A DNA stretch of 16,228 nt, taken from a virus. The notes under the pieces were generated by a model. The model did no database searches and was not told the origin of the DNA. It was given only the letters and a program-made list of their open reading frames with translations. The position numbers were made by a program, and so were the translations under genes. The DNA lies in UHGV virus genome UHGV-1335354, one strand, 5' to 3'. Of this stretch, positions 1 through 13,661 are shown in pieces; within the stretch, counting starts at the first letter, position 1; each line of letters starts with the position of its first letter.

Positions 1-55
1 AGAACGAGAGCTTCCCAAGCTCTATACGAGGGTTCGATTCCCTTCGCCCGCTCCA
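1..55 (+). tRNA. glyU: tRNA-Gly (anticodon CCC), 5' part cut by window edge; its 3' end is the attL side of the island
   Basis: Sequence matches the 3' two-thirds of enterobacterial tRNA-Gly(CCC) as I recall it: anticodon loop CTTCCCAAG, T-arm GGTTCGATTCC, acceptor 3' strand CGCCCGC, discriminator and CCA at 53-55. Confidence 0.9.
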
Positions 56-70
56 GAATCTCCCCAGGTG

Positions 71-93
71 GAGAAGACTAAAAAAGTCTTCTC
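71..93. other. perfect 8-bp stem hairpin (GAGAAGAC / GTCTTCTC, 7-nt A-rich loop) just downstream of the tRNA; no U-tract
   Basis: Inverted repeat read directly from the sequence; function unknown (tRNA 3' processing or att-associated structure). Confidence 0.3.
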
Positions 94-552
94 TGTCAGC
101 AACTTAAACAGTTACCTATTTAATTTGCTTAGGAGTTCTACCATTGTGATCCGCCCTTAGTAACTGTCACGTTAAGTTACACGGTGAGATGACAGTATAA
201 CCTAACGTTGGCGGCAGTTGCACCTCTCACACCGCGATAGCACAACGTGAAGATAAAGCCCATCCTGGCATTGTAATGTCATCGACAGACTGAACACACG
301 CATTTAAGCCCGATGTGCGGCCTTGTGGCTGCGTAAACAGGTTTATGGTGATATTGGTCCTTGCAAACCATATGCAAGCTCTATCAGCGTTTCAGCCACG
401 CTCCCAACGGGTACACGGTTATCCTGATAAGGTGTGATCTTTCTGACAATCTGATGAAGTCGCTACGCTCCCGCTTGTTGCTGTATCACCAACGGGGCTT
501 TATGGTTTCTATTGTCTATAATAATCTCACAATTCCCCTGCATGAGGTTGAT

Positions 553-759
553 ATGACTGTTAGCTACAAGATTACTTATGAGCATAGAGACGGTGATCAA
601 ATTAGAATGGAAGAGGTTTTATTCCATTCAGAGCATGAACCAACAAAAGATGAAATTCATGATGCAGTAAGAAAAGACACTGTGAGATTTAATTCTCCAT
701 CTAATGGAGTAACGGCTGTTTCAGGGTTTAAAGTGATTTCGGTTGTCCCTGTTCCATGA
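553..759 (+). CDS. hypothetical small protein (~68 aa); the ORF track extends it to 361 only via a TTG codon
   Basis: ATG at 553 preceded by GAGG 5 nt upstream; open frame to stop at 759; followed by a hairpin. No family recognised. Confidence 0.35.
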   Translation: MTVSYKITYEHRDGDQIRMEEVLFHSEHEPTKDEIHDAVRKDTVRFNSPSNGVTAVSGFKVISVVPVP

Positions 760-770
760 ATGGTTATAGA

Positions 771-787
771 AGGGGCTGGAAGCCCCT
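771..787. terminator. short hairpin between convergent genes (AGGGGCT-GGA-AGCCCCT), candidate bidirectional terminator
   Basis: 7-bp perfect GC-rich stem with 3-nt loop between the stop at 759 (+) and the stop at 793 (-); flanking sequence AT-rich on both sides. Confidence 0.45.
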
Positions 788-792
788 AATTA

Positions 793-1113
793 TTACTTCT
801 TAATATCGCCAGTGCATTGATATTCGATAGTCACAAGTGTTTGCATACAACCAGATGAAGAAGGTTGTGAACATTGAGAAGTGAATCCACCAAAAGGCTC
901 GGCTCCTGAATATCCCCAAGCGGCACAACGCGCTTTGGCTGCATTCATGCCTTGTTGTGGATCTACAACAGGACTTTCAAACATACCGTAAGAATAACTC
1001 ATCCTAACTGTGCCGTCTGATTTGCTTCCACCAGTTGGAACGAGTTGTTTTTTTGTTGCACATCCAGAAATAATCAATGTTGAAGCAAGTAACAGCATTA
1101 AACTTTTGCGCAT
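793..1113 (-). CDS. putative lipoprotein (106 aa) with six cysteines in the mature part
   Basis: N-terminus MRKSLMLLLASTLIISGC has a signal peptide plus lipobox (I-S-G-C) typical of signal peptidase II substrates; no specific family assigned. Confidence 0.6.
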   Translation of the reverse strand: MRKSLMLLLASTLIISGCATKKQLVPTGGSKSDGTVRMSYSYGMFESPVVDPQQGMNAAKARCAAWGYSGAEPFGGFTSQCSQPSSSGCMQTLVTIEYQCTGDIKK

Positions 1114-1425: not shown

Positions 1426-1765
1426 AACGCCCCCTAAATGAATGTGAGGGGGATTAAATCATGCAAATTTGTTGTGTGCAATACTGGTAATTTATCCTAA
1501 TAGTCTACTATTCACCTCAATCTACGTCAACCAATATTTGATGTAGATTTGATTTTCTTTTAAAAACAATATGTTGCAATTTGTTGGGTTTTGGGGTTAG
1601 GTTGTTTTTTGGACGTTTCCATCAAGTGTAAAGATACGTTTAGCCTTCATAGTGAGTTCAGTTACTGTCTTTTTCTCTGAAATCGGCGCATACGTGATCA
1701 TCGCTTAACGAGAAGATCAGCGCCGTCAGGTCCATGCAGCGACAATTCTGAAATATCAGGAGGCA

Positions 1766-2317
1766 TTACGCTTCCTGCTCTTTCTTGATACGTTGCACCG
1801 TCTGTGTGCTGACACTGAAATCTTTTGCTACGCTCCGAATTGATCCACCATTCGCGAGAGCGGCAACAATTCCCGCTCGATCAATTGCTTTTCCATTACC
1901 ACGTTTTGCTATACGCCCAGCTGCCTTAGCTGCGGCGATCCCTTCACGTTGACGCTCAAGCATCATTTCACGTTCCATTTGTGCCACTGCTGCAAGCACT
2001 GTGAGCATCATATTCCCTGCGGGAGAGTTCTTCCCTGTCTTAAAGTCTTCTTTATGGAAATGCACAGACACGCCGCGCTCTGTTAATTGCTCAACCGTTG
2101 CCAGAAGGTCGGCTGTATTACGGCAAAGGCGATCAATGCTGTGAACATGCAAAACATCACCTTCCCGCACATAGTTCATCATTGCCTCAAACTGTGGGCG
2201 CTGGGTATTCTTGCCTGACGCTTTATCTTCAAAGACTTTATCAAGAGTTACTCCAGCTAATTGACGGTCTGTGTTTTGTTGCACAGTCGATACCCTAATG
2301 TATCCAATATTAGCCAT
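1766..2317 (-). CDS. serine recombinase, small resolvase/invertase type (183 aa)
   Basis: N-terminus MANIGYIRVSTVQQNTDRQ with catalytic Ser at position 10, conserved R/D residues of the resolvase catalytic domain, C-terminal HTH (GGSIRSVAKDFSVSTQTVQRI). AGGA Shine-Dalgarno upstream. Confidence 0.85.
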   Translation of the reverse strand: MANIGYIRVSTVQQNTDRQLAGVTLDKVFEDKASGKNTQRPQFEAMMNYVREGDVLHVHSIDRLCRNTADLLATVEQLTERGVSVHFHKEDFKTGKNSPAGNMMLTVLAAVAQMEREMMLERQREGIAAAKAAGRIAKRGNGKAIDRAGIVAALANGGSIRSVAKDFSVSTQTVQRIKKEQEA

Positions 2318-2551
2318 TTTCTTTATTCCTTCTGTGTTGATTTGTGTGTAGTGATTATTGATCGTGTTGATTAGGTGTGTAAAGGACTTTTTTCACTACG
2401 AAATTCGAAGGTTTTTAGTGTGGTGATTTAGCCTGCTTTATCACTACACGTCTTGCATGAGAATCATGTAGTTACATTTTGGTAAAATTAGCAAGCTATT
2501 AAATAGTGTGTTTATTTTGAAAAAATAATTTTTTGTTGCATTAAAGGAAAC

Positions 2552-2585
2552 TTGTTCAATAAATGGTAGAACATTTATTGAGCAA
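2552..2585. promoter_or_regulatory. 34-bp palindrome (14-bp arms, 13/14 match, 6-bp spacer): candidate protein-binding or recombination site
   Basis: TTGTTCAATAAATG-gtagaa-CATTTATTGAGCAA read from the sequence, ~235 bp upstream of the serine recombinase start. Confidence 0.35.
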
Positions 2586-2940
2586 CAATTTTGCAGTGAT
2601 ACGCTATATGCCGCATTACATAAGGCTTTGCTGATGATAATGTAAAAGTGAAGAAAGTAAGAATTGCACTTTGAAGCTACTTTTCATTGCATTTTTTAGT
2701 ATGGAATTACACGGAATAAACTATGAATATTCTACGATTTACACGAGATATTCTTGCTGTTTAATTCCGGCTTTGGAGATCAGGCATTCGCAAGAATACG
2801 CTAACGCGTTGCCTGAAAAGCCATTGCACATAATAGAGGTGAGCGTATAGCGATACACTAATCATAACAACATCTTCTTACTTTTTAGTTAGTTAGTTGT
2901 TAGTAGGTTATTGTTATGCGCGCTATTAGCGCATGTATAA

Positions 2941-2989
2941 AGGTATCATTTTTATCTAAAGGGGCTTTAGACATTTTTGATACCTTTTT
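2941..2989 (+). terminator. bipartite hairpin (outer 8-bp and inner 6-bp stems) followed by a T-run; candidate rho-independent terminator or structured RNA
   Basis: AGGTATCA...CTAAAG-GGG-CTTTAG...TGATACCT followed by TTTTTC. Confidence 0.35.
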
Positions 2990-3025
2990 CTGTGCAAGAC
3001 ACTTACCAGTGTATAGTGCGGTTTC

Positions 3026-3077
3026 CCTACCTACCCAGGAAATGAGTTCCTACCTACCCAGGAAATGAGTTCCTACA
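3026..3077. repeat. 23-bp perfect tandem direct repeat, 2.3 copies (CCTACCTACCCAGGAAATGAGTT)
   Basis: Copies at 3026-3048 and 3049-3071 are identical, followed by partial copy CCTACA. Confidence 0.9.
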
Positions 3078-3084
3078 ATACTAT

Positions 3085-3106
3085 AATTAAACTACAATTA
3101 AACTAT
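3085..3106. repeat. 11-bp AT-rich tandem repeat x2 (AATTAAACTAC / AATTAAACTAT)
   Basis: Read directly from the sequence, immediately after the 23-bp repeats. Confidence 0.7.
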
Positions 3107-3239
3107 CTTTTATAAATTCTTTTATCTTTTAAAGAATAATTATAGGGATACCCGTTAGGGAGTCTTCGACTATCCCTTAATCTATTGGCATTCGCCAGAA
3201 CCTTGCACAAGTTAGACTGATGCTTGTCATAACAGATAG

Positions 3240-3287
3240 TTTTTGTTTTTTGTTTTTTGTTTTTTGTTTTTTGTTTTTTGTTTTTTG
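3240..3287. repeat. heptanucleotide microsatellite (TTTTTTG), about 7 units
   Basis: G at 3245, 3252, 3259, 3266, 3273, 3280 and 3287 with T6 between each; perfect periodicity of 7. Confidence 0.95.
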
Positions 3288-3943
3288 TTAGTAGTTAGCT
3301 GATCTATGTTCGCTTTCCGCTCACAACGAATATGTAATCTACTATGTGCAAATAGCCTACGGCTTGCGTATGGCTAATAGTCTTGCGCTGTGCGCAGAAC
3401 GATAATTAACTAACTACCATCTAACGATTGAAATTTACTTGTGCAATAACCTGAGCGTAAGCGAATGGTTGTTAGTGTCGCGTTACCCTTTGGGGATGCT
3501 AACGCATAACATGACAAAACAACCAACAACAAAAAAGAAAGAATGGTTTTTGTAGTTGAAGGTTAAATAAGATTCTACCGCTTAAATCAAGCCGTAGGCG
3601 AGCTTAACAGGGTAATGTAAGGGAAACACCTTAGCGGTAATAGATTAGCTCGTTACAGAGCTTCTGAGAACTTTGCAGGTATTTTATAAGATGTCTGAAA
3701 TCAGAGTTTATCTATCCACCATCTTTCCATCATCTGATAAATCAAAAATAAGACCCTTAAATAAGCCTCTGACGAGATAAACAACCTCTACATAAGGGAA
3801 TGTATTGTTTTTATCAAAACCCCGTCAGAGTGCGATTGAGAGCGTTTTAGACAACAGGGAAGAATTGTACCAGAGTAGGCAGCACAAAAAGCTAAGAAAA
3901 ATTATAAGAAATTGAAAATGATCAAATTTTTTATAAAAGAGGG

Positions 3944-3972
3944 TTGACAAAGCCGCCGTTATGTAGTATTGT
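3944..3972 (+). promoter_or_regulatory. candidate sigma70 promoter for the rightward small-gene operon
   Basis: TTGACA (3944-3949), 17-bp spacer, TATTGT (3967-3972); about 115 bp upstream of the first gene. Confidence 0.45.
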
Positions 3973-4088
3973 AAGTAGGGAGGGGAGAAACATCTCTCTC
4001 CATCTAAATAATCAAATCACAGAACACTGCACTTTGAGCCGTCAGGCTGCAAGGTGTGTTTTTCTTTTATCTAAATAAGGAGTTTTTT

Positions 4089-4271
4089 ATGAAATGGTAT
4101 ACACCGGAACACGTCGTAGAGGCATTTAAAAAAGGTGAGCTAACACGACATCAAGTAAGGATGAACAGGAACACAGCGCGGCGCTGTGGTTATCCAGAGC
4201 GTGAAAAATGCTTTGACGATGCACTAAAAATTATTGATGAACTGCGTAAGGCAGAAGCAGAGAAAGAATAA
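4089..4271 (+). CDS. hypothetical small protein (60 aa); ORF track start 4056 is probably too far upstream
   Basis: ATG at 4089 preceded by TAAGGAG at optimal spacing; protein MKWYTPEHVVEAFKKGELTRHQVRMNRNTARRCGYPEREKCFDDALKIIDELRKAEAEKE. Confidence 0.5.
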   Translation: MKWYTPEHVVEAFKKGELTRHQVRMNRNTARRCGYPEREKCFDDALKIIDELRKAEAEKE

Positions 4272-4294
4272 TAACAGGAGAAGGAGAAAACCAA

Positions 4295-4471
4295 ATGAAT
4301 ATTAATTTTGATTCTGCAACTTATAACGCGTTGTTAAATCGTGCAAAGGCAGAAGGGAAATCAATTCCAAAACTTGTTAATGAATTACTAATTACAGTCC
4401 TTACAAAGGAGGAACTAAATGAACCAAAACACCAAAACAATTGCCGAAGCAAAAGCGCAATGCCTCAATAA
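4295..4471 (+). CDS. unannotated small ORF (58 aa), possible ribbon-helix-helix (CopG/Arc-like) DNA-binding protein
   Basis: Hand-translated: MNINFDSATYNALLNRAKAEGKSIPKLVNELLITVLTKEELNEPKHQNNCRSKSAMPQ; GGAGAAGGAG upstream; N-terminal 40 aa resemble an RHH fold by composition; overlaps the next gene by 53 nt in another frame. Confidence 0.4.
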   Translation: MNINFDSATYNALLNRAKAEGKSIPKLVNELLITVLTKEELNEPKHQNNCRSKSAMPQ

Positions 4472-5084
4472 GAAAGATAGTAAACAAACATATGTAGTAG
4501 TTGAACAATGGCTGAAGATGTTTAAAAAGTGGTTCTCACCGTCAGGTAAGGAATACACCGCGACACTTCCAGCCGTTGAAATCTACAGTTACGTAGCTGG
4601 GTTCAATGAACAAGGGCAAGAATGTTACGCCAATCAAAAAACATTAGCTAATATTGGAATGGTTAGTGATCGTCAGGTGCGTAATATTATAAATATGTTT
4701 ATTGATATGGGTGTTCTTTCTGTAGAGGCACGGGACGGGCAAACATCACTCTATAAAGCATTACCCTTTACAGATGCACACATCACACCACCGGAAGACG
4801 TAAAAACCTCTGTAAACGTAGAACAGCCTGCACCTGAAACACAGGAACCGTTAGAAGCGACACACTCTATTGAGCAGGAAACACAGGCAGAAATCACGGA
4901 ACAATCTGATCTTTTTACATGGCTTATTTCCATAGACAGCCAAAAGCCTATGCAAGAAGAAACAGAAAATTTTATAAAACGTGCACTGACCTCGAAGAGG
5001 ATAATTCTTGAAGATGATGCTTTTAATGCACTGATGATAGCCCTGAGAAAAGAAAGTGAAATCTATGACTCAATACCATTTTAA
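4419..5084 (+). CDS. putative winged-helix/HTH DNA-binding protein (221 aa), replication-initiator-like or regulator, with acidic low-complexity C-terminal half
   Basis: AAGGAGG Shine-Dalgarno 7 nt upstream; central segment ECYANQKTLANIGMVSDRQVRNIINMFIDMGVLSV resembles HTH modules of phage/plasmid replication initiators; no Walker motif. Confidence 0.55.
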   Translation: MNQNTKTIAEAKAQCLNKKDSKQTYVVVEQWLKMFKKWFSPSGKEYTATLPAVEIYSYVAGFNEQGQECYANQKTLANIGMVSDRQVRNIINMFIDMGVLSVEARDGQTSLYKALPFTDAHITPPEDVKTSVNVEQPAPETQEPLEATHSIEQETQAEITEQSDLFTWLISIDSQKPMQEETENFIKRALTSKRIILEDDAFNALMIALRKESEIYDSIPF

Positions 5085-5096
5085 GGAGAATAAAAA

Positions 5097-5354
5097 ATGA
5101 AATACAACCTGACATTAAACAAACGAACATTCGAAATTACAGAAAGCGGCTACACACTGGCAAAACAGATCGCTGATAGCAATTATAAGCTACCCGCGAT
5201 TATCAGCTTTCAGGAGTTACCGCACAGTAAAGAACACACACAGCATTGGCTAAATCACCTAAGCCATTTTGGGGTAATTCAGTATGAAGCTGTGAATAGT
5301 CAGACGTTCCGTTTGCTCGAGGTAAACCCGTTTGAATTGTGGATGACACTGTGA
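5097..5354 (+). CDS. hypothetical protein (85 aa)
   Basis: ATG preceded by AAGGAG; part of the co-oriented operon; no family recognised. Confidence 0.5.
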   Translation: MKYNLTLNKRTFEITESGYTLAKQIADSNYKLPAIISFQELPHSKEHTQHWLNHLSHFGVIQYEAVNSQTFRLLEVNPFELWMTL

Positions 5355-5557
5355 TCATATTCGATGGCGAATTTTCACAAGAAATCTTTCTGCAATATTT
5401 ACGGGAAAGAACGGGAATGATTCTGTTTGATTCTGAGTTTTCCGGTGTGGTAGGTGAGCAATTTTTATATGCTCTTCTCGATAACCTAAGTAAACAAGGA
5501 TTATTGCAGTATACAAAAACTCATATGAAAGCATTCAGAATCGACTCTGTAGCTTAA
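5339..5557 (+). CDS. hypothetical protein (72 aa), GTG start overlapping the upstream gene
   Basis: Open frame with GTG at 5339 overlapping the preceding stop; no family recognised. Confidence 0.35.
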   Translation: MDDTVIIFDGEFSQEIFLQYLRERTGMILFDSEFSGVVGEQFLYALLDNLSKQGLLQYTKTHMKAFRIDSVA

Positions 5558-5685
5558 AACAAACAACAAACAACTATCAAACATCTTGAAGGGTGAAACA
5601 ATGGAAAGCTTAATATTTTTCTTAGTATTTATGATCGCTTCCTTTTTTAACACTGCAACAAGAAAAACAAAACGAAGGGGAAGCA

Positions 5686-6066
5686 ATGAGCAAGAAAAAA
5701 GGCAAGAAAAACGTAATAACAACTATTGGCGAAGCATGTGATCAGTATGCGTTAAACAATCCTCGCAAATATAATTATGAGCATGATGCACAACCAGGCG
5801 AGGAATTGATCTTTATACTTGAAGAACCAAGCCCAGAATTGACAGACGAAGAATTATCAATCATTCAAAGTATGGATGGTGTTTACTTCAATCCGCGCCC
5901 ACGCAAAACAACAATCATTGATAGTAGTCTTCTTAAAAGATGGCAGTGTTTAGGCTTCCAGGATATGAATCATTTTCGTGGCTACATGGCTCTTAATAGT
6001 TTGCAGTATGCAGGCGCAAGAGAGACAGAGTTACTTATGCTTGAAAGAATAAAAATAGACGATTAA
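5686..6066 (+). CDS. hypothetical protein (126 aa), lysine-rich N-terminus
   Basis: ATG preceded by GAAGGGGAAG; no family recognised. Confidence 0.5.
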   Translation: MSKKKGKKNVITTIGEACDQYALNNPRKYNYEHDAQPGEELIFILEEPSPELTDEELSIIQSMDGVYFNPRPRKTTIIDSSLLKRWQCLGFQDMNHFRGYMALNSLQYAGARETELLMLERIKIDD

Positions 6067-6107
6067 CAGCGTTGGCTGAATATAACCCTTAACAAAAGGA
6101 AAATAAA

Positions 6108-6329
6108 ATGATTAACAAAGCAATTTTAGAGACAACCACTTTTCATGATCTTAAGCTTCTTTCAGAATGTTTTATAAATATTATTGAACGTGCAAAGGAA
6201 GAGAACGATCTGGCAACTCTGGATGACGTTGTAGACAACATTGCAACTTATAAAATCCCGCTCACTATTGCTATGAAGAAAGCACGCGAAGCACAACAAA
6301 AATTAGAACAATTAGAGGAAGTGGCATAA
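6108..6329 (+). CDS. hypothetical small acidic protein (73 aa)
   Basis: ATG preceded by AAAGGAAA; stop overlaps the next start (ATAATGA). Confidence 0.5.
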   Translation: MINKAILETTTFHDLKLLSECFINIIERAKEENDLATLDDVVDNIATYKIPLTIAMKKAREAQQKLEQLEEVA

Positions 6330-6643
6330 TGAGCGAAGTTCACACCGTAACTATTCAGCTATACGATTTAATCATCGACCTTCAAAAATCTGTTAACGAA
6401 GCCATAGAAGATCCGACAGAATTTAATATAGGAAAAGCCGTTCTCAATCTTCAATCTCTACATGATGCAATGTCAATGTTAGTTGTAGCTTGTGAGGAGG
6501 CCGAAGGCGGGAAAGTTGATGCAGAAGATCTTGCAAACTTCAATCTCATGTTGGCTGATTGTAGTTGTGTTGTTCAAAGTGCAATAGAAGACTTACAGCC
6601 GCTTATTGATAACCTGTTAAGGGGTAAGCATGAGCAACTTTAA
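6329..6643 (+). CDS. hypothetical strongly acidic protein (104 aa)
   Basis: GAGGAAG Shine-Dalgarno; Asp/Glu-rich composition; translationally coupled to neighbours. Confidence 0.5.
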   Translation: MSEVHTVTIQLYDLIIDLQKSVNEAIEDPTEFNIGKAVLNLQSLHDAMSMLVVACEEAEGGKVDAEDLANFNLMLADCSCVVQSAIEDLQPLIDNLLRGKHEQL

Positions 6644-6863: not shown

Positions 6864-6872
6864 AGATATACA

Positions 6873-6901: not shown

Positions 6902-6956
6902 AATAAATATGCTTGGAAGATGATAAAGCAAGGATTGCATATTCTCCAATTATATC

Positions 6957-7316: not shown

Positions 7317-7345
7317 ACCTGATGGGCGTCAGGTTATGAACAGAT
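7302..7345. promoter_or_regulatory. nested inverted repeats (outer ATCTGTTC/GAACAGAT, inner CCTGA/TCAGG): candidate operator or RNA structure
   Basis: Read from the sequence; arms share the CAGAT/CCTGAT motif with the terminator stem at 7431-7477. Confidence 0.35.
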
Positions 7346-7430
7346 AGCGCCTTGCGCCAGTTACACATCCCTTACGGTCGGTGAATCCTAAATAGCCAAC
7401 TACCTGGTAACGGTGCATTGTATTTGAGAA

Positions 7431-7486
7431 AACAGATCAGGAAAGACTTTCCAAAGGGTCTACTCGCCTGATCTGTTCTTCTTTTT
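7431..7486 (+). terminator. long-stem hairpin followed by a T-run: candidate rho-independent terminator
   Basis: Perfect 11-bp stem AACAGATCAGG / CCTGATCTGTT with a 25-nt loop, followed by CTTCTTTTT. Confidence 0.5.
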
Positions 7487-7591
7487 AGAACATATAACAA
7501 TGACTGATCATTCTTATATGCTCTTCTCATGAAAGTATATAATCAATGTTATGCTTAATTCGAACATTAAAACCCCCCTCTAATTAATATA

Positions 7592-7619
7592 GCCAGCCTA
7601 CCCGCTGGCATATTTTTAT
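7592..7619 (+). terminator. short hairpin plus T-run, second candidate terminator before the structural-like operon
   Basis: GCCAGC-ctaccc-GCTGGC followed by ATATTTTTA. Confidence 0.35.
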
Positions 7620-7656
7620 AAGTGGAAAACAAATCTGTTATAAATGGGACCACTCC

Positions 7657-7860
7657 ATGAAAAAACAAGACATGATAATCAGTAAAGACGGGGAAACGAT
7701 GACTGTTAGTGATGAAAACATCCTTAAAGTTGCCGCACTGTTGGGAGTTACTCCCGAAAGTCTTCGCTCTACTACTGAACAATTGTTTAAATCTGCTAAT
7801 AATGCGGAAACACCCGCACAGGCTATTTTAAACCGAATCACACAACTGAAAGGAAAATAA
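7657..7860 (+). CDS. hypothetical small protein (67 aa), first gene of the structural-like operon
   Basis: ATG-initiated; predicted largely helical C-terminal half; scaffold-like role is speculation. Confidence 0.45.
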   Translation: MKKQDMIISKDGETMTVSDENILKVAALLGVTPESLRSTTEQLFKSANNAETPAQAILNRITQLKGK

Positions 7861-7865
7861 TATAT

Positions 7866-8252
7866 ATGGCTAACCCATACGGCGTTAAATTCGCCCCTGT
7901 AAACGCGAGCAATGACCTTGTGCGTTGCAAAATTATCGCCTATTCCGGCGATCCCCTGCTGCAAGACCGTTTAATCACACTGGCGGCACCACTGACAGAA
8001 GATGTTATTGTCGGTGATCTGCTGAAAGCTGATGGCACCAAAGCAACCGCCGCCGCTGATATCGCTTACGTCGCTGTAGAACCTTCGTTTGCAGGTCAGG
8101 AAAGCGTAGTGGTTGCACATCCTACTTTCGTTATTCTGGCGCGTGCTGGTATCGAATTTAACGGCATGGCAGAAGAAAGCGTGATCTCAAAACTGCAATC
8201 TATTGGTTTCGTGATCGCTGGTTATTCCGAAGCTGCAATCCCTACTACTTAA
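7866..8252 (+). CDS. possible phage head decoration-like protein (128 aa)
   Basis: Size, position directly upstream of the capsid-sized gene, and a loose pattern resemblance to lambda gpD/SHP-type decoration proteins; E. coli-like codon usage. Assignment unverified. Confidence 0.55.
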   Translation: MANPYGVKFAPVNASNDLVRCKIIAYSGDPLLQDRLITLAAPLTEDVIVGDLLKADGTKATAAADIAYVAVEPSFAGQESVVVAHPTFVILARAGIEFNGMAEESVISKLQSIGFVIAGYSEAAIPTT

Positions 8253-8270
8253 TATAAGGAAATATAAATA

Positions 8271-9305
8271 ATGAATATTCAAGAATTATTTGGTCGTCAG
8301 GCGAGCGTAGTAAGCCCATTCGAATATGAGCAAGGCTTAAACCTGCTGTTCTCTTCCCTGGAGATCTTTGATAAGCAATCTCACAGCACTAACAGTATTC
8401 TTCTGACTACTGCAATTGAAAGCTTTATGCAGATTGCAAATGAGCAAGAACCCTACGCACAAAGTCAGTGGGACTCAAGCAAGCGCGGCACCTTCTCAAA
8501 CGTAATGTTTGAAATGAAGCACCTTGCAACCATCAACAGCGTGACAAGTCGTGATCTTGAACAGTACAGCCGTAAAAATCTTTCTACTGCTGACTCTATG
8601 CTGCTGGCGATCAATGATTTTGCTAATCAGCATTACCGCTCACATGAGAACGCTGTAGAACGTGATCTGCTGCGTGCAATCCTCACGCTGAAAGTAGAAT
8701 CTCAATTTGCAGGTCAAGGTGATATTGATTTGCTGGAAGGTGACGCTAAAACCGTAGCGCCTGCAATTGACTTCACAAGCACTACCGTAAACCCTTACCG
8801 TGCACTGGCTAAGATTGTTCGTCAACAGTCTAACATTCTGGGCGAATCCCTTGCGGCTAAACGTTCCGGTGTTCTTGTGCTGGCTGCTGGCGGCGCTGCT
8901 GATGGTCTGCGTTACAACGATATGCTGAAAGATCAGGTTGTTTACTCCAGCAATGCACAGGCAAGCGCGGCAGTAACTAAGATCGTAGCTGATAACCCAG
9001 CGTATGATGCTTTCCAGCTTGCACAGGTGACTGTTATTGATGTTAGTGACTTCCCGTCAATCGTTGCAGAAATCGGTGAAAATGGTTTGGTTGTGATCCC
9101 GCTGTTCCCTGCTGATGTTCAAGCTTACGTGCTGCATACAGGCGTCGCGGTCCGTCATGCCGAACACGGTAAAGATGCGGAAACACATCACCAATATCTG
9201 ACACAGGATCAGTTTATGTTCCCGTCAGTGTGCACCGAAACGGCTTACCTGCCATTCATTCAGAAAGTAGTTGCTAAAGCGATTATCTTCTCTGAAGCAC
9301 AGTAA
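8271..9305 (+). CDS. possible major capsid protein of the lambda gpE-like family (344 aa)
   Basis: AAGGAA Shine-Dalgarno; length matches gpE (~341 aa); N-terminal segment QELF...FEYEQGLNLLF resembles the gpE N-terminus as I recall it; follows the decoration-like gene as in lambda D-E order. No alignment run. Confidence 0.6.
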   Translation: MNIQELFGRQASVVSPFEYEQGLNLLFSSLEIFDKQSHSTNSILLTTAIESFMQIANEQEPYAQSQWDSSKRGTFSNVMFEMKHLATINSVTSRDLEQYSRKNLSTADSMLLAINDFANQHYRSHENAVERDLLRAILTLKVESQFAGQGDIDLLEGDAKTVAPAIDFTSTTVNPYRALAKIVRQQSNILGESLAAKRSGVLVLAAGGAADGLRYNDMLKDQVVYSSNAQASAAVTKIVADNPAYDAFQLAQVTVIDVSDFPSIVAEIGENGLVVIPLFPADVQAYVLHTGVAVRHAEHGKDAETHHQYLTQDQFMFPSVCTETAYLPFIQKVVAKAIIFSEAQ

Positions 9306-9347
9306 GAATAATAACGCTCCAGCACGTTAAAAAATAATGCTGGCGAT

Positions 9348-9414
9348 AAAGGGCAAAAGGGATTAACTAACCTGTAAAGCAAATACAGTAACGGATCTCT
9401 TTGCCCTTTTTTCG
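9348..9414 (+). terminator. long hairpin (AAGGGCAAA ... TTTGCCCTT) followed by a T-run downstream of the capsid-like gene
   Basis: 9-bp perfect stem with ~42-nt loop then TTTTTCGTTT; an inner 6-bp inverted repeat CCAGCA/TGCTGG lies at 9318-9342. Confidence 0.4.
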
Positions 9415-9448
9415 TTTATACCGTCTATTAAATATTGAGAGAAAAATC

Positions 9449-9649
9449 ATGAGCGAACAAAACAAACAAGTAGAATTATATAAAGCAGTGCGCACACTGG
9501 CAGAAAACACCGATGAATCCATTGTAAACGTTAGCGCCTTATGCCGTTTTCTGGATGTGGATCATAATCGTGTGCGTCAATATGCACATTACCACAATGT
9601 AAGTGCAATCGCGGCTATTCAGTATGTGATGAATAACCCTGTAAAATAA
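9449..9649 (+). CDS. hypothetical small protein (66 aa); ORF track start 9401 is a TTG inside the upstream hairpin
   Basis: ATG at 9449 preceded by GAGAGAAAAATC; no family recognised. Confidence 0.45.
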   Translation: MSEQNKQVELYKAVRTLAENTDESIVNVSALCRFLDVDHNRVRQYAHYHNVSAIAAIQYVMNNPVK

Positions 9650-9667
9650 TAAAAGGAGTACCCAACA

Positions 9668-11515
9668 ATGAGTTTAGATATTTCTGTATCTACTTTAAAA
9701 AATACAGTAACCTTTGTTACCGATCATAAAAGCCTGAATAAAGCTAAAGCAGAAGTTGAAAAACTCCGTAAGCAAATGTCAGCCGTGAAAGACGTAGAAA
9801 TACGTGTTAAGACACACAAACAATCAACAGCTAAAACAAAAAAAGACGTAGACGATATTGCTAAAAAGCAAGCACAGGTAGATAAGGCAAATCTCAAAGC
9901 ACAAAAAGCGGCTCAACGTGTAGCGGCGCGAGAACAAAAAGCCCTGGCAGCACGCAAAGAGAAAGCAGAATTAAAACTGTTAGATGTTGGATCAAGTATT
10001 AGTGCAATGAATCGTCTTAATGTGTCTGAACAATACAAAGCTATTGCACAAGCTAAAGCTATTGCACACGAATATGAGAAGGGCGCTATTAGCCTGGCAC
10101 GTATGAATAGCCAAATGAAACGACTTCAACAGCAACAACGTAAGATTAACGGCAATCGTAACGCTCATGCTAAAGCTTATGCACCTGTTAAGGGTAGCGG
10201 GAGTATTGGCGGCGGTGCTGCTGCTGTTATGCTGGGCGGCTTAGGCGCTGGCGCTGCATTCTTGGCTATGAGTAAAGCAAACGAATTCGTTGCTAATAGT
10301 TTTGCCAATGCTGAGACACAAGGTGAATTATATAGCCGTGCGAAGCTGGGCGGTGTAGACGTTAACCAGATGAATAATATTGAGCAATGGGCGTATAAAA
10401 ACGGCGTTGATTCAATGATGGGCGAACAAGGGAAACGTAAATACCTCGACCAAATGAAAGATGTGCGTGAACGTGCAACCAAATCTTATGATGAGACTGA
10501 ATATGTAGTTGATAAAAAAACTGGTAAAGGGGAATGGAAGGGCGGCGATTCAGGTATTAATACTTTATTAAACGAAGGTTTCTTAACTAAGAAAGATTTA
10601 AAAGACTTCGCTAATAATCCGGCAGGTTTAATAAGTAAAGCAACACAAGGAATGGTGGCGAAAGGTTATTCTGATGCACAGGTGGGGTCACGGCTTGAAG
10701 ACCTGGGAGATGACCTTATGTTGACCTCCAAATATTGGACACGATCCGCTAAAGAAGTGGAACAATCAGCCCGTGAACAAAAAGAATCAGGACGCTGGAT
10801 AACGCAGGCACAACAGGAAAGCGTGATTAAATTCCGTGAACTGAATAATGCACTTACCGGACTTTCTGACTCACAAGGGATCGCCTTTGTTGATGGCTTT
10901 ATGAAATCTCTCGATCCTGCTGTGATTGAAGAATTTAAAAAGAGCATGGTTGCAATGCTGCCAATGTTTACCAAATTGGGCGAGGCTGTAGGGGGGCTGC
11001 TTAATGCGATCATGAAAACTATCAACTGGTTGATGAAAAATGACGAGAAGACGGCAGCTATTCAGAAGAATTTAGGTGATGCCCCTCCTTTAAGTAATGA
11101 AGGAATGAAGAAGAATTTAGATAATCTCACTCCTGATCAATATAAAGGCGCTGGCACTGCAACAACTGCACCGGATAATAGTAACTCTCTGTTTAATACT
11201 ATTAAGGGCTTTTTTGTTAATGGTGATGATTCTCCTTCTGGCGGTCAGGCTGCAATGCAATATGACGTTACAGGGCAAAACATTGCCAACCTGAAAAACA
11301 GTGCTGCACAGCAAGCTATGCAAGCTCCAGCCTACACATTTGCGCCTGTTCTCAATTTTGCACCTGAATTACAAGTTAATGCACAAGTGCCGCTAACTAT
11401 TCAGAGTGATACCGGACGATTGAGCGATTATATCGACTTCAAATCTAAAGCCTCTGCCGCTGAGTTTAGCAAGCTATTAACCCTGGGCGTTATGTCAGGC
11501 GGGTCAACCTATTAA
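9668..11515 (+). CDS. coiled-coil, glycine-rich protein (615 aa), tape-measure-like
   Basis: AAGGAG Shine-Dalgarno; N-terminal ~160 aa K/A/Q/E-rich coiled-coil-like; Gly/Ala hydrophobic segment GSGSIGGGAAAVMLGGLGAGAAFLAMS; no enzymatic motif or Walker A seen. Confidence 0.6.
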   Translation: MSLDISVSTLKNTVTFVTDHKSLNKAKAEVEKLRKQMSAVKDVEIRVKTHKQSTAKTKKDVDDIAKKQAQVDKANLKAQKAAQRVAAREQKALAARKEKAELKLLDVGSSISAMNRLNVSEQYKAIAQAKAIAHEYEKGAISLARMNSQMKRLQQQQRKINGNRNAHAKAYAPVKGSGSIGGGAAAVMLGGLGAGAAFLAMSKANEFVANSFANAETQGELYSRAKLGGVDVNQMNNIEQWAYKNGVDSMMGEQGKRKYLDQMKDVRERATKSYDETEYVVDKKTGKGEWKGGDSGINTLLNEGFLTKKDLKDFANNPAGLISKATQGMVAKGYSDAQVGSRLEDLGDDLMLTSKYWTRSAKEVEQSAREQKESGRWITQAQQESVIKFRELNNALTGLSDSQGIAFVDGFMKSLDPAVIEEFKKSMVAMLPMFTKLGEAVGGLLNAIMKTINWLMKNDEKTAAIQKNLGDAPPLSNEGMKKNLDNLTPDQYKGAGTATTAPDNSNSLFNTIKGFFVNGDDSPSGGQAAMQYDVTGQNIANLKNSAAQQAMQAPAYTFAPVLNFAPELQVNAQVPLTIQSDTGRLSDYIDFKSKASAAEFSKLLTLGVMSGGSTY

Positions 11516-11562
11516 TCATCGCTGTGGGGCTGTTTAGCCCCCTTAAATAAGGATTACAAATT

Positions 11563-12240
11563 ATGGCTTATGGTGCTTTAACCATCGGACGACCGACAGA
11601 ATCACAAGTAAACAGCACAAGTAACGATTCTAACGCGAAAGCGACGAAAGGACAGAACGGTTTCGCTATCATCACCTCTAACCTCGGCAGTGGTGCTAAT
11701 GCTGCGTATGCAGAGTATCAAGCTCTCAGCTTTGACAGCGTGGAATCGACAAAAGTTAGTCGCAATGCGGACGTAACAAGCTATGCCGTTCAGGATGGGG
11801 CTATGGTGTCCGATCACATCCAGATCAAGAACAATAAGTTTTCATTGCAAGGGCGCGTAAGTGAAACAGTATTGAAGCTTAACCCTGATATGCTTAAGAA
11901 CGCGGGTATTAACGGCAATCGTAGAATGCTTATGCTTGAATACCTAAATCAGATCATGGACTCACGCCAGCCCTTCATGTTGATAACAGAACATCGTAAT
12001 TTTGACAATGTGGTGCTGGTTGGGATTGATTACGAAGAAGAAGCCAGCGAATCATTGCTCTTTAATCTTGAATTCGAACAAATACGCCTTGTGAGCTATG
12101 CAACCACTAACGCTATTGCTACAAAGACACAGAGCAATAAATCGACAGGTGGCAGTGTTAAAACTAAGGTTAACCCGACACCACAAAAAGCACCTACGAG
12201 TACAGGTGAGGACGTTATAACGCCAGTATTTAAACAATAA
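11563..12240 (+). CDS. hypothetical protein (225 aa), last gene of the structural-like operon
   Basis: AAGGA Shine-Dalgarno; followed by a hairpin; no family recognised. Confidence 0.55.
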   Translation: MAYGALTIGRPTESQVNSTSNDSNAKATKGQNGFAIITSNLGSGANAAYAEYQALSFDSVESTKVSRNADVTSYAVQDGAMVSDHIQIKNNKFSLQGRVSETVLKLNPDMLKNAGINGNRRMLMLEYLNQIMDSRQPFMLITEHRNFDNVVLVGIDYEEEASESLLFNLEFEQIRLVSYATTNAIATKTQSNKSTGGSVKTKVNPTPQKAPTSTGEDVITPVFKQ

Positions 12241-12282
12241 CAATAGCGGTACTATAAAATGCTCCGTAACGAGATAATCCTA

Positions 12283-12313
12283 AAAGAGGCTCCCATTACA
12301 AGGAAGCCTCTTT
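12283..12313. terminator. hairpin between convergent genes (AAAGAGGCT ... AGCCTCTTT), candidate bidirectional terminator
   Basis: 9-bp perfect stem with 13-nt loop, T-rich 3' flank, between stop at 12240 (+) and stop at 12334 (-). Confidence 0.5.
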
Positions 12314-12333
12314 ATTGCGCCTATGGCGTTGTT

Positions 12334-13554
12334 TTAAGCCTTAAAATCAATATTTAATTCATATCTTACTAATTCTACATATTCAGCTAATTCTTGAATG
12401 CTTGCCCCTTGTGAGTAGGTGCGAAAGGCTTCTGTTTTAGCTATCTGCTCTGTATGTCCGGTAATGGCTCCGATCCGCTGTTCAGGCACTCCGGCACGAT
12501 CAAGACAAGTGATAAACATCCCGCGCAAGCTGTGAAAGCATTGTCTATTTGTAGCGATTGGCAAGACGCTACGACGTAAACGTGAGAATGCTTGAGAATA
12601 GAAAGGGCCTTTCTTACCGTCGATTCTTTTTACTTTGTTCGAGTGAGGGAACAAATATTCACCATAATTATGATTTAAATATTCATCGACAATAATCGAT
12701 AGTCTCGAATGTATCGGAACGTGCCTGATCCCTGCTTTAGTCTTACTTTTGCTGATATAAAAACAGCGTATTCCTTCCACAGTTACAACTTCTGACTTTT
12801 TCAGGCTTGCCAGTTCGTCTAATCTGCATCCTGAAAACAAGCCCATTAAAATAATATTTCTGATCTCCGGCTCCGCTGCATCAAGTAGCTTTTGCATTTG
12901 TTCAGGTGTAAACGGTTGATAACTCTCGATTGTGCGACGTGCTTCGAGGTTATGACCGTGAAAAGGGTTACTGTCTGGTATTCCGTCATAACGGCGTTTA
13001 GCAAATTCATAGAGCGATCCTAAGCATGTAAGCCAGTTTTGACGAGATTGATCGGCTGCTCCTCGTTGCTTCTGGTCATCTAAGAATACTGTTACAAGCC
13101 GTCTGCCTATTTTCTCAATATGAATATCATCTTTCTGAATGCTTTGTAAAAATAGCTCAACGGCCCTTGCTGATTTCTGTAGTGTTGAGTATGAACGACG
13201 CTCTCTGTAGCATTCGGCGTATTCGTCACGTATTAGGCACAGGGAAGGCGATGCATAACCGCGTTTTACGGCTCTTTGCGTGTTTTTATTGGCCCTTGCC
13301 TCTGAATGTAAGGATTCAATAGCTTGTTGTAACCTCCTTTCGGGGTTATCAGGATTATGTTTCCGCTTTAGTTCCTCCCATTCTAATAATAGATGGTTTC
13401 TGAATCTTCTCGCCTCATTCAGATCTCGTGTAGATGTGCTTTTTCTCCACAACTTGTAAGGGTAAAGATGACGTAAGTATTTAGGAACAAAAATCTGAAA
13501 CATCCAGATCCCATCTTTTCTCTTAAATAAGTATGCTTGGCTCTTGATCGACAC
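12334..13554 (-). CDS. int: tyrosine-type site-specific integrase (406 aa), GTG start
   Basis: C-terminal catalytic-domain signature: Arg in GCRLDE, HSLRG box, ITGH, terminal Tyr region; AGAGGA Shine-Dalgarno 8 nt before GTG; lies 86 bp inside the right direct repeat. Confidence 0.9.
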   Translation of the reverse strand: MSIKSQAYLFKRKDGIWMFQIFVPKYLRHLYPYKLWRKSTSTRDLNEARRFRNHLLLEWEELKRKHNPDNPERRLQQAIESLHSEARANKNTQRAVKRGYASPSLCLIRDEYAECYRERRSYSTLQKSARAVELFLQSIQKDDIHIEKIGRRLVTVFLDDQKQRGAADQSRQNWLTCLGSLYEFAKRRYDGIPDSNPFHGHNLEARRTIESYQPFTPEQMQKLLDAAEPEIRNIILMGLFSGCRLDELASLKKSEVVTVEGIRCFYISKSKTKAGIRHVPIHSRLSIIVDEYLNHNYGEYLFPHSNKVKRIDGKKGPFYSQAFSRLRRSVLPIATNRQCFHSLRGMFITCLDRAGVPEQRIGAITGHTEQIAKTEAFRTYSQGASIQELAEYVELVRYELNIDFKA

Positions 13555-13631
13555 GATAATGATCCTCTATTATCACGTAATCAGTTACCTATGATTGATC
13601 ACAAAATCTTTATTTTACAGCAGGTTATTAT

Positions 13632-13661
13632 GGGTTTCCTCGATTCCCTTCGCCCGCTCCA
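13632..13661 (+). repeat. attR: direct repeat of the tRNA-Gly 3' end
   Basis: 13640-13661 is identical (22/22) to tRNA positions 34-55 (TCGATTCCCTTCGCCCGCTCCA); upstream GGGTT also matches with a 3-4 bp insertion. Confidence 0.85.

Follow-up and report, generated by a model that had tools for sequence, protein, structure and literature searches.

The window (the whole stretch of DNA analysed, 16,228 nucleotides of UHGV virus genome UHGV-1335354) contains a 13.6 kb insertion bracketed by two exact 22-bp repeats. The features of the insertion and its borders are:

1-55, plus strand: 3' part of glyU, tRNA-Gly(CCC), the integration target; 5' end cut by the window edge (Rfam tRNA, 34.9 bits)
34-55, plus strand: attL core, 22 bp, the final 22 nt of the tRNA (exact repeat)
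361-1425, mixed strands: left-end accessory genes, namely a hypothetical gene (361-759, plus; PGAP: 502-759), a YecR-like lipoprotein gene (793-1113, minus) and a 55-aa ORF (1258-1425, minus)
1680-1762, plus strand: short segment ~80% identical to an unannotated gap of Phapecoctavirus genomes (DNA alignment)
1766-2317, minus strand: small serine recombinase, resolvase/invertase family (Pfam Resolvase, 1.1e-38)
2318-4055, no strand: 1.7 kb non-coding region with tandem repeats and a promoter (no ORF of at least 60 aa)
4056-4271, plus strand: small conserved protein that opens the rightward operon (homologues 35-80% identical across the family)
4295-4471, plus strand: 58-aa protein common to Justusliebigvirus early regions (DNA and amino-acid identity)
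4419-5084, plus strand: winged-helix (HTH_36) protein (Pfam HTH_36, 1.1e-4 and 22.3 bits, under the 25-bit cut-off; PHROGs replication-initiation families, 7e-6)
5097-5354, 5339-5557, 5686-6066, 6108-6329, 6329-6643 and 6630-6863, plus strand: six small genes with no assigned function
6873-7619, plus strand: non-coding transcription unit, or else a long leader with a terminator, ahead of the capsid genes (promoter and terminator)
7657-7860, plus strand: 67-aa protein that opens the capsid module (E. coli-type members 67-75% identical; dN/dS 0.25)
7866-8252, plus strand: 128-aa protein, weakly head-decoration-like (always immediately upstream of the capsid gene)
8271-9305, plus strand: predicted major capsid protein, HK97 fold, lambda-E/phi92 subclass (Phage_cap_E in relatives, hhalign, Foldseek)
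9449-9649, plus strand: 66-aa protein immediately upstream of the tape measure gene (gene called in relatives)
9668-11515, plus strand: tape measure protein, 615 aa (PHROG tape measure, 1.6e-27)
11563-12240, plus strand: Dit-like tail tube initiator (Pfam Dit_like, 4.9e-27)
12334-13554, minus strand: tyrosine integrase, 406 aa, GTG start (DUF6538 and Phage_integrase domains)
13640-13661, plus strand: attR core, followed by native glyU-downstream sequence (exact repeat and K-12 comparison)

The 22-bp repeat, TCGATTCCCTTCGCCCGCTCCA, is the 3' end of glyU; exact copies occur twice in the whole window, at 34-55 and at 13640-13661, where 0 are expected by chance (200 shuffles). The Rfam tRNA match covers window positions 1-52, corresponding to model positions 20-71, and ARAGORN calls no tRNA at 1-55 only because the tRNA gene is truncated by the window edge. 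The E. coli EC100 record, which is 99.4% identical, has an annotated full-length tRNA-Gly here, and the K-12 annotation of the tRNA is glyU, tRNA-Gly(CCC). The sequence right after glyU in K-12 (ATTTATCTTC...) is the sequence right after attR in the window, and attL is preceded by the tRNA body, so that the attL side retains the complete tRNA; the results identify the junctions of a site-specific insertion into a tRNA 3' end. The same core flanks family members in L003, L004, L021, L022 and L031-L033. In the right flank, a GH15 gene (13852-15504) is followed by a frameshifted YscQ/SctQ gene and the remaining ETT2 genes. In K-12 the site is empty, with glyU directly adjoining ygeQ/GH15, and the empty glyU junction is matched in one place in 3,390 of 5,426 complete E. 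coli genomes (~62%). A sequence-only reading of this DNA had placed a 13.6 kb island at tRNA-Gly(CCC), between glyU and an ETT2-type locus, had noted the recurrence of the tRNA 3' end, and had proposed a search for empty sites; all of this is borne out, the insertion being discrete, the cores identical and empty sites frequent. Its stated route to refutation, a lack of empty sites combined with a repeat common in the chromosome, fails: empty sites exist, and within the window the 22-mer occurs only at the island ends.

The same reading had described an inward-reading tyrosine integrase at the attR end and undamaged att sites, and both descriptions hold. The integrase starts 85 nt inside attR, with a ribosome-binding site (AGAGGA) 8-9 nt upstream of its GTG start; it is full-length, being as long as the PGAP-annotated integrases of relatives; and inspection of the translation by eye shows the motifs R (GCRLDEL), HxxR (HSLRG), H (TGHTE) and Y (RTYSQ). 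It is present in 190 complete genomes, near full length in 183 of them, and has a dN/dS of 0.10. Throughout the family, across three tRNA sites, the distal end carries an integrase. We infer that this glyU copy may be excisable. The sequence-only reading had not recognised the island as phage-derived and satellite-like. The second recombinase of the island, the small serine recombinase, also matches a PHROG DNA invertase (7e-62) and the Tn3 and gamma-delta resolvases in the PDB (1e-27), and is 99-100% identical between glyU and thrW elements. A search for a gix/hix-like core for this enzyme found none; its probable role is resolution of multimers or concatemers.

Of 5,426 complete E. coli genomes, 616 carry an element of this family, which also occurs in other Enterobacteriaceae (nine further genera); its members are integrated at glyU, thrW or leuX, with different integrases and the same architecture. 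Element size is 12.1-14.7 kb across 41 elements. The structural genes are under purifying selection (dN/dS 0.08-0.25), and the 9-84 unique full-coverage alleles analysed for each gene are free of internal stops; some family copies carry IS insertions or a truncated integrase. Relatives that lack an integrase are circular molecules of ~13-14 kb (13.2-13.9 kb), with a capsid/tape measure/tube initiator module 95.5% identical to that of the window. Their circularity is indicated by k-1 terminal overlaps at different breakpoints in three independent assemblies and by other assemblies that are circularly permuted. The existence of circular relatives without integrase implies that the backbone can replicate, which is not proof that this copy excises. 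We conclude that the 13.6 kb glyU island is intact and belongs to this family, which is common in E. coli. The family of small elements is apparently new to the literature: we found no publication that describes it, and the sole published mention found for the glyU site is a 'GI-glyU', uncharacterised, in a list for ST101 strains, which may or may not be the same element.

The left part of the island carries accessory, replication and regulatory features. The accessory genes, including the lipoprotein gene (Pfam YecR, 1.8e-23), are confined to glyU-type family members and gave no hits with PADLOC; the Phapecoctavirus-like segment at 1680-1762 is absent from the other family members searched. 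The 1.7 kb non-coding region contains tandem repeats (23 nt x2.2 at 3026-3076; 11 nt x2.4; TTTTTGT x7 at 3240-3289) and a strong outward promoter at 3944-3972 (TTGACA-17-TATTGT). An equivalent unannotated gap is present in all relatives, and parts of the region are 88-96% identical in a circular relative (L110). The region is a candidate origin and control region. The operon-opening protein has no family match in profile searches that included PHROGs. The 58-aa protein has 91% amino-acid identity to bas60_0101, and phages PaulScherrer and VEcB match the DNA of window 4281-4447 at 95-96% identity; from the protein sequence we would guess at a ribbon-helix-helix fold. The winged-helix protein is a putative replication initiator or origin binder; sister elements have a helicase in place of this gene. 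None of the six small genes at 5097-6863 has a Pfam match; the 6630-6863 product matches phrog_27862 (1.5e-15), and the 126-aa product of 5686-6066 is encoded by a family-wide core gene (30-55% identity across genera; dN/dS 0.11).

Between these genes and the capsid module lies the non-coding unit, whose promoter (6873-6901) is near-consensus, 11/12, the best match in the island, with a palindromic, operator-like spacer, and whose intrinsic terminator is formed by 7592-7609 and a T run. The promoter is kept in E. coli-type members and some others, and other element types have a terminator in the same place with a different stem. The sequence between promoter and terminator is only 36-52% identical between types, and Rfam gave no match to the unit.

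The virion genes of the island follow the local gene order of phi92-like phages, and all four point to one phage group. Pfam Phage_cap_E (PF03864) is matched by 26 of 32 family capsid proteins (best 5.5e-43); the window's own capsid protein has no Pfam match. In hhalign it aligns with the PHB05 capsid protein at a probability of 83% and with the alternative capsid protein of L003 at 92.6%. With an AlphaFold2 (AF2) model (pLDDT 79), the top Foldseek matches are all capsid proteins of the lambda-E/phi92 subclass (1e-16 to 1e-10), the best being the phiTE capsid (1e-16), the ICP1 coat in the PLE small capsid (5e-16), Sf14 and lambda. Profile and model evidence thus identify the 8271-9305 product as a lambda-E/phi92-type HK97-fold major capsid protein (dN/dS 0.08), remote from the phi92-type protein at 17-26% identity. 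The capsid family comprises only 61 clusters among 1.84 billion proteins and is found mostly inside such islands. The 128-aa gene is a core gene (dN/dS 0.21) whose position parallels that of phi92 gp123 and PHB05 gp115 (130 aa, 'head decoration') and whose product has weak similarity to Phi92_gp123; the capsid and decoration-like proteins resemble the gp124/gp123 type.

The tail-core genes show the same affinity. The tape measure protein matches 134 phage records, nearly all Stephanstirmvirinae, aligns colinearly, N to C terminus, with its PHB05 counterpart (660 aa, 27% identity), and matches Phi92_gp134 in the PDB (3e-20; dN/dS 0.16). The tube initiator is 49-54% identical to the product of the gene beside the tape measure gene in Stephanstirmvirinae and matches Phi92_gp135 (8e-59) and a 'tube initiator protein' (9cuy, 1e-9) in the PDB (dN/dS 0.08). 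Identity to phage counterparts is 27-30% for the tape measure protein and ~50% for the tube initiator. The 66-aa gene occupies the position of a 57-aa gene of phi92-like phages (compare PHB05 gp125), with no sequence similarity between the products; a chaperone-like role is a guess.

Links to the same phages extend to sister elements, whose alternative capsid and tape measure alleles match them, and to regulation: a few Justusliebigvirus phages have early genes whose DNA is 91-96% identical to that of two regulatory genes of the island, which implies recent recombination inside a shared cell. For the winged-helix protein, residues 30-143 are 75% identical to phage muut gp094 (window 4514-4774, ~91% in DNA), in which an island-like winged-helix domain is fused to a GIY-YIG domain of the MUG113/T5orf172 type. 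The same architecture is seen in Odn, the anti-PLE nuclease of ICP1, which imitates the DNA-binding domain of PLE RepA to cut the PLE origin (PMC8263062). By analogy, muut gp094 is a candidate phage counter-measure. No closer phage was found among 50,697 phage records, and the island capsid gene occurs in 0 of them, indicating that phage deposits include no packaged copy; matches in IMG/VR are contigs of 13-58 kb, apparently chromosomal prophage calls rather than satellite-sized genomes.

These results combine a specific link to one phage lineage, in homologies of tape measure, tube initiator and capsid and in early-gene DNA identity, with a gene set unable to make a virion alone. Searches of the island ORFs against Pfam, PHROGs and NCBIfam gave no match to terminase, portal, protease, sheath, tube, baseplate or fibre, and the only ORFs longer than 344 aa are those of the tape measure protein and the integrase. 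We consider it probable (about 0.62), from homology and from analogy with PLE, that the island is a satellite resembling PLE, has virulent Stephanstirmvirinae myophages as helpers and builds chimeric virions. Its helpers would most likely be large virulent myophages of the phi92/phAPEC8 group (Justusliebigvirus, Phapecoctavirus). We count against this reading that the phage records include no packaged copy, that neither a packaging signal nor a small terminase was identified in the island, that the decoration assignment is weak, that the island has its own shell protein but no portal gene, and that, with a tape measure protein only 45 aa shorter than the helper's, no clear effect on tail length is predicted. 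Given its remoteness from the phi92-type protein, the capsid protein may or may not fit a helper portal or scaffold.

It is possible, if unlikely, that the element is instead a dedicated anti-phage island, itself not transduced, in which the capsid, tape measure and tube-initiator homologues are decoys or dominant-negative subunits that poison phi92-like assembly, and the integrase serves only occasional movement by other routes. The homologues are exactly the phage parts with nucleation-limited assembly, regulators are common to island and phage, muut gp094 could be the phage's answer, and in PLE interference and parasitism coincide. This reading is also compatible with a satellite. However, tight size, a replication module, circular episomal relatives and constrained full-length structural proteins are traits of a packaged replicon, needless for a decoy, and PADLOC matched no known defence-system profile. 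We regard as improbable a satellite whose helper is another, possibly temperate, relative of Stephanstirmvirinae rather than the known virulent phi92/phAPEC8-like phages: DNA identity to Justusliebigvirus and the 80% Phapecoctavirus match tie the element to known phages, and the 50,697 phage records yielded nothing closer. The low identity of the structural proteins to sequenced Stephanstirmvirinae (just 17-54%) and the small, mostly island-borne capsid family would suit such a helper, but satellite-helper tail identity is also low in PLE/ICP1. A decaying prophage remnant without present function, its virion genes mere leftovers, would explain the incomplete virion gene set, the two long stretches without annotated genes and the IS-hit copies and truncated integrases of some genomes, but is disfavoured and highly improbable, given one minimal set of genes that recurs in unchanged order in hundreds of genomes, across nine other genera and at three attachment sites, constrained structural genes free of internal stops in the analysed alleles, no fragment of any further phage gene in the island, tightly clustered sizes and related circular replicons.

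Under the preferred reading, a satellite of virulent myophages, the island can be compared with known satellites. P4-like satellites are ~11-14 kb, use tRNA sites including leuX, exist integrated or as plasmids, and have a myophage helper; the family is similar in size and in its use of tRNA sites, and would probably share the other two traits. Searches of all ORFs against Pfam and PHROGs gave no match to alpha primase-helicase, Sid, Psu, Delta or AlpA, and P4 is not known to encode structural proteins of capsid or tail except the external scaffold/decoration factors Sid and Psu. PICIs carry AlpA, primase-replicase and packaging-redirection genes, none of which was detected in the island. PICIs and PICMIs are likewise integrase-bearing islands mobilised by helper phages, reportedly virulent ones for PICMIs, but classical Gram-negative PICIs and PICMIs are without virion structural genes.

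The set of genes in capsid-forming PICIs (cf-PICIs) comprises portal, protease, connectors, small terminase and HNH, and their helpers are temperate. Like the family here, cf-PICIs are 12-15 kb satellites of Enterobacteriaceae at chromosomal sites with their own major capsid protein. In contrast, the island has just a capsid and a decoration-like protein and no other capsid or packaging gene; its capsid protein is of the lambda-E type, a tube initiator is present, and its affinities are with virulent myophages. The cf-PICIs are described as encoding every protein required to make and fill capsids, taking only tails from helpers; a tape measure gene is reported as putatively present in some (PMC12987554, Extended Data Fig. 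10).

The closest parallel is with PLEs, likewise small integrated elements linked to a large virulent myophage whose capsid protein is of the lambda-E type. Among structural matches to the island capsid model, the ICP1 coat in the PLE capsid ranks second, and long non-coding regions occur in both elements, PLE having a regulatory sRNA. The tail chaperone, tape measure and baseplate hub of PLEs are self-encoded, 20%, 20% and 41% identical to those of ICP1, and give chimeric tails (PMC12987554); the island likewise has its own tape measure and a tube-initiating protein, distant from those of the putative helper. PLE differs in having a large serine recombinase, whereas the island has a tRNA-targeting tyrosine integrase, which makes PLE membership unlikely; in taking the ICP1 coat and reshaping it with the external scaffold TcaP, whereas the family here carries its own capsid and decoration-like genes; and in host and helper. 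The resemblance is functional.

According to the satellite model, the element would reside at glyU under its own control until helper infection, upon which the integrase would excise it through the 22-bp att core. The circle would be replicated by the winged-helix initiator and the repeat-rich non-coding region, and the serine recombinase may resolve multimers. The island virion genes would then be expressed and substitute for their helper counterparts: the capsid and decoration-like proteins would form a shell sized for ~13 kb, and the tail core would be nucleated by the island's tape measure and tube initiator. The helper would supply portal, terminase, scaffold or protease, tube, sheath, baseplate and fibres. 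The tail part of this model has been demonstrated experimentally for PLE/ICP1 in Vibrio cholerae (PMC12987554). The resulting chimeric particles would carry the island to new cells, probably lowering helper yield.

The direct repeat of the tRNA 3' end proposed by the sequence-only reading is present: the 22-mer TCGATTCCCTTCGCCCGCTCCA occurs twice exactly, at 34-55 and 13640-13661, with a chance expectation of none. Positions 1-55 are the 3' part of a tRNA gene (Rfam), and ARAGORN makes no call there because the window edge truncates the gene. The record of E. coli EC100 (L001), which matches the entire window at 99.4%, has a complete tRNA-Gly annotated at the same place (named glyU, tRNA-Gly(CCC), in K-12), with ActS and xdhABC upstream and a GH15 gene and a degraded ETT2 type III secretion cluster downstream. 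The distal tyrosine integrase reads inward from the minus strand (12334-13554; 406 aa; DUF6538 and Phage_integrase domains), starts 85 nt inside attR behind a good Shine-Dalgarno, and is equal in length to its annotated relatives. Comparison with empty sites shows that in K-12 glyU directly adjoins ygeQ, a GH15 remnant, that the K-12 sequence 3' of glyU resumes exactly at the window position after attR, and that 3,390 of the 5,426 complete E. coli genomes match the K-12 empty junction at a single place. Empty sites thus exist, the condition set for rejecting the earlier reading does not hold, and we conclude that the earlier reading of an element inserted at glyU, in both observation and interpretation, is correct.

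The flanks and the end of the integrase gene yield observations of their own. Directly after the att core, the glyU-GH15 spacer holds ~78 bp that are extra relative to K-12 (13662-13760); because this stretch is common in empty-site genomes too (matches of 801 vs. 879 bp), it is, judging from these matches, a chromosomal polymorphism outside the island. Frameshifts affect SctQ, SctU, PrgH, the needle gene and SctI in the ETT2 cluster of EC100 (15500-16228 and beyond; L001 21500-28211), and other carriers of the same island retain secretin and HrpJ-type genes, so that the island adjoins ETT2 clusters in differing states of decay. The 3' end of the integrase gene (12388-12468) matches, at 78% over 81 nt, both a 'left inverted repeat' feature of phage P2-EC53 and an unannotated stretch of phage R18C.

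Between the att cores, the following features precede the genes for virion proteins:

1766-2317, minus strand: small serine recombinase
2318-4055: gene-free, AT-rich, repeat-rich region of 1.7 kb, with a strong rightward promoter at its end
6873-7619: stretch of ~750 nt with no conserved ORF, just upstream of the capsid genes

After the last of these come genes for products of 67, 128, 344, 66, 615 and 225 aa, and then the integrase gene. The 344-aa protein itself has no direct Pfam match; 26 of the 32 members of its family match Phage_cap_E, profile comparison ties it to the capsid protein of the phi92-like phage PHB05 and to a more canonical capsid protein in the same slot in sister islands, and an AF2 model built from 32 sequences (pLDDT 79) matches lambda-E subclass capsid proteins only, the best being those of phiTE, the ICP1 coat in the PLE small capsid, Sf14 and lambda. 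This model replaced one built from 8 sequences (pLDDT 45), which was discarded as unusable. On the strength of the matches in relatives, the profile comparison and the model, we assign the 344-aa protein as a capsid protein. The 128-aa gene ahead of it occupies the position of the 130-aa head-decoration gene of phi92-like phages, the two proteins showing faint similarity only. The 615-aa protein matches PHROG tape measures (1.6e-27) and the solved Phi92_gp134 (3e-20), aligns end to end with the PHB05 tape measure (660 aa), and has phage relatives in only ~134 records, nearly all Stephanstirmvirinae (Justusliebigvirus, Phapecoctavirus, and Klebsiella and Citrobacter kin). The 225-aa product, a Dit-like tube initiator, matches Phi92_gp135 (8e-59) and is 49-54% identical to what those phages encode beside their tape measure gene. 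The 66-aa ORF that precedes the island tape measure gene shows no similarity to its phage counterpart or to any solved structure. The 67-aa product (7657-7860) is named 'ACP S-malonyltransferase' by PGAP in EC100; as the product is so small and its gene opens the capsid module, the name is almost certainly a mis-annotation. Nothing in the island resembles a terminase, portal, protease, sheath, tube, baseplate or fibre, and the island therefore cannot be a phage.

Two island segments are nearly identical in DNA sequence to Justusliebigvirus genomes: 4281-4447, a 58-aa ORF, at 95-96% to PaulScherrer/Bas60 and VEcB, and 4514-4774, encoding a winged-helix domain, at ~91% to muut, inny, Mt1B1_P17 and BI-EHEC. 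This near-identity implies recent recombination between island and phage, and hence that the two have replicated inside the same cells. The Justusliebigvirus early gene muut gp094 (2630-3628 of the phage muut record, L019) encodes two HTH_36 domains and a C-terminal MUG113/T5orf172-type domain (GIY-YIG superfamily); its second HTH_36 domain is 75% identical to the initiator-like protein of the island, and the equivalent region of PaulScherrer contains a gene for a 61-aa product with 91% identity to the island 58-aa ORF. In the Vibrio cholerae phage ICP1, the nuclease Odn, directed against the satellite PLE, joins a DNA-binding domain resembling that of PLE RepA to a T5orf172 nuclease and cuts the PLE origin (PMC8263062). 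The common design of muut gp094 and Odn, a satellite-like DNA-binding domain joined to a T5orf172-type nuclease domain, makes muut gp094 by analogy a candidate anti-island nuclease.

The left end of the island carries a few accessory genes, one for a YecR-like lipoprotein. Elements at glyU and thrW share the serine recombinase at 99-100% identity (1766-2317 vs. 6463-7014 in L006, the thrW-type relative from O104:H4 FWSEC0009), compared with 33-88% for other genes, a pattern that points to recent exchange or strong homogenisation of this module; the recombinase is equally similar to resolvases and invertases, and no gix/hix-like core for Gin/Hin-type inversion of the adjacent non-coding segment was found. 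Region 2318-4055 contains tandem repeats (23 nt x2.2; 11 nt x2.4, twice; TTTTTGT x7; TTAG x5), corresponds to a gap of 1.3-2.4 kb in every relative, and is a candidate origin or packaging region; pieces of it are 88-96% identical in the circular relative L110. Two small proteins and the winged-helix initiator-like protein follow, and then six small genes without assigned function. Positions 1680-1762 match, at 80% identity, a portion of an unannotated 1.5 kb gap in genomes of the phAPEC8 type (Phapecoctavirus), the match lying near record ends in several records; among the loci checked, the segment is present only in this island and EC100. A fold of the 1600-1730 region is no better than that of shuffles.

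The unit at 6873-7619 is bracketed by the best (near-consensus) promoter of the island, the spacer of which is palindromic (TATAAC-N6-GTTATA), and by an intrinsic terminator, the stem of which differs between element types. The interior is almost unalignable between types (36-52% identity), a divergence too great for an alignment-based RNA test; a search for conserved RNA structure in Rfam gives no match, and rate comparisons with neighbouring genes are contradictory because of mosaicism. A 119-aa ORF called by PGAP at 6957-7316 (minus strand) in near-identical island copies is unannotated in the other element types (L003, L004, L006 and L007). The unit could be a non-coding RNA or an antiterminated leader; non-coding RNAs of other satellites include P4 CI RNA and PLE SviR.

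Stand-alone contigs of 13.2-14.3 kb in several assemblies carry the same backbone with no tRNA-type integrase. Three of them, from different sequencing runs (L110, L112 and L116), have 30-bp terminal overlaps at three different breakpoints, 30 bp being the k-1 overlap of a circular contig if k = 31 is assumed for Logan assemblies, and L111, L113 and L114 are circular permutations that read across these junctions. L110 shares with window 7780-12246, at 95.5% identity, the module of capsid, tape measure and tube initiator genes. From the overlaps, the permuted contigs and the module identity, we infer that the backbone can exist as a satellite-sized circular replicon. The circular relatives, ~13.2-13.9 kb in size, replace the integrase module with an Imm_superinfect (superinfection-immunity) gene or a 189-aa Phage_integrase-domain gene, plus small uncharacterised genes; a PLSDB plasmid search with a circular relative gave no useful match, the circles being absent there. 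Another relative, L091 (13,140 bp; 55-bp terminal overlap), was considered as an excised circle and rejected as an assembly break at a repeat, because its overlap is the 55-nt tRNA-Gly 3' half that forms the att repeat of the integrated relatives L077 and L095.

The capsid and tape measure module is present in 616 of 5,426 complete E. coli genomes (~11%), and the integrase of this island in 190 of the complete E. coli genomes. The 41 elements with identifiable att repeats measure 12.1-14.7 kb. Elements at thrW and leuX, one example being in O104:H4, have the same architecture with the integrase distal but with different integrases, and sister elements at glyU have the replication module replaced by a helicase or have swapped capsid and tape measure alleles. 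Beyond E. coli, related elements are found in Citrobacter, Kluyvera, Raoultella, Scandinavium, Phytobacter, Buttiauxella, Kosakonia, Cronobacter and Klebsiella oxytoca. In O104:H4 FWSEC0009, a second integrase-bearing, satellite-like element with AntA/B, Icd-like, DUF927 primase-like, ProQ/FinO and PerC genes directly follows the thrW-type relative (L006 18265-27859), and satellites thus appear, from this arrangement, to stack in tandem at thrW. Against IMG/VR, the single capsid protein found no matches and an alignment search found only contigs of 13-58 kb, none satellite-sized. We found no published description of the family in a search that most subscription journals lay outside, so an earlier description is possible; a list of ST101 islands has a bare 'GI-glyU' entry that may or may not be this element.

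We estimate at about 0.6 the probability that the island is a satellite of virulent phi92/phAPEC8-like myophages. Beyond integration, all steps of the cycle are ones that we infer: the island would excise, replicate and build chimeric particles, in which a small shell would be made from its capsid and decoration-like proteins, tail assembly would be nucleated by its tape measure and tube initiator, and the helper would supply all other virion components. For the tail part of the model, PLE and ICP1 provide a demonstrated case, in which a PLE-encoded tail chaperone, tape measure and baseplate hub, 20%, 20% and 41% identical to those of ICP1, replace the phage proteins; the same authors point to putative tape measure genes in further satellites (PMC12987554). 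The pattern of identity to the phage proteins is alike here, at 27-30% for the island tape measure and ~50% for the tube initiator. PLE is the closest system in function; given a tyrosine vs. a large serine recombinase, an own capsid protein and a different host, the island is almost certainly not a PLE by descent. Portal, protease, connectors and small terminase define cf-PICIs, and alpha, Sid, Psu and Delta define P4-like elements; the island lacks both gene sets.

The best surviving alternative to a satellite of these myophages, an island that interferes with phages and is not itself transferred, is unlikely; PADLOC finds no defence system in the island. A satellite of some other helper, as yet unknown, is slightly less probable again; the closest phages of the alternative capsid and tape measure alleles are once more Stephanstirmvirinae. 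Least credible by far is a dead remnant, since median pairwise dN/dS values of 0.08-0.21 indicate a maintained, functional gene set, not debris.

Median pairwise dN/dS of island genes
Capsid protein: 0.08
Tube initiator: 0.08
Integrase: 0.10
Conserved 126-aa protein: 0.11
Tape measure: 0.16
128-aa protein: 0.21

Satellites of virulent phages have been described in Vibrio (PLE, PICMI) and in a small number of other hosts, and we found no published description of a satellite of large virulent coliphages. The wider proposal, to which we give slightly less than an even chance, is that E. coli and its relatives harbour a counterpart of the PLE-ICP1 system, in which widespread ~13 kb satellites, integrated at glyU, thrW or leuX or present as circles, would parasitise virulent phi92/phAPEC8-like myophages and assemble chimeric virions with their own shell (capsid and decoration proteins) and tail core (tape measure and tube initiator), and in which the phages would counter with nucleases of the Odn kind that incorporate DNA-binding domains captured from satellites. 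For annotation, a block of hypothetical proteins that recurs beside glyU/ETT2, thrW and leuX can now be named and delimited. If true, the proposal would define a new satellite strategy, an own shell protein and tail core with no portal or terminase, and would extend the recently found chimeric-tail mechanism beyond Vibrio. Phages of the Stephanstirmvirinae are often considered for therapy and biocontrol, and the family could, if the proposal is true, account for strain-specific resistance to them. If confirmed, a family carried by ~11% of complete E. coli genomes would offer a genetically tractable system for arms races between satellites and virulent phages.
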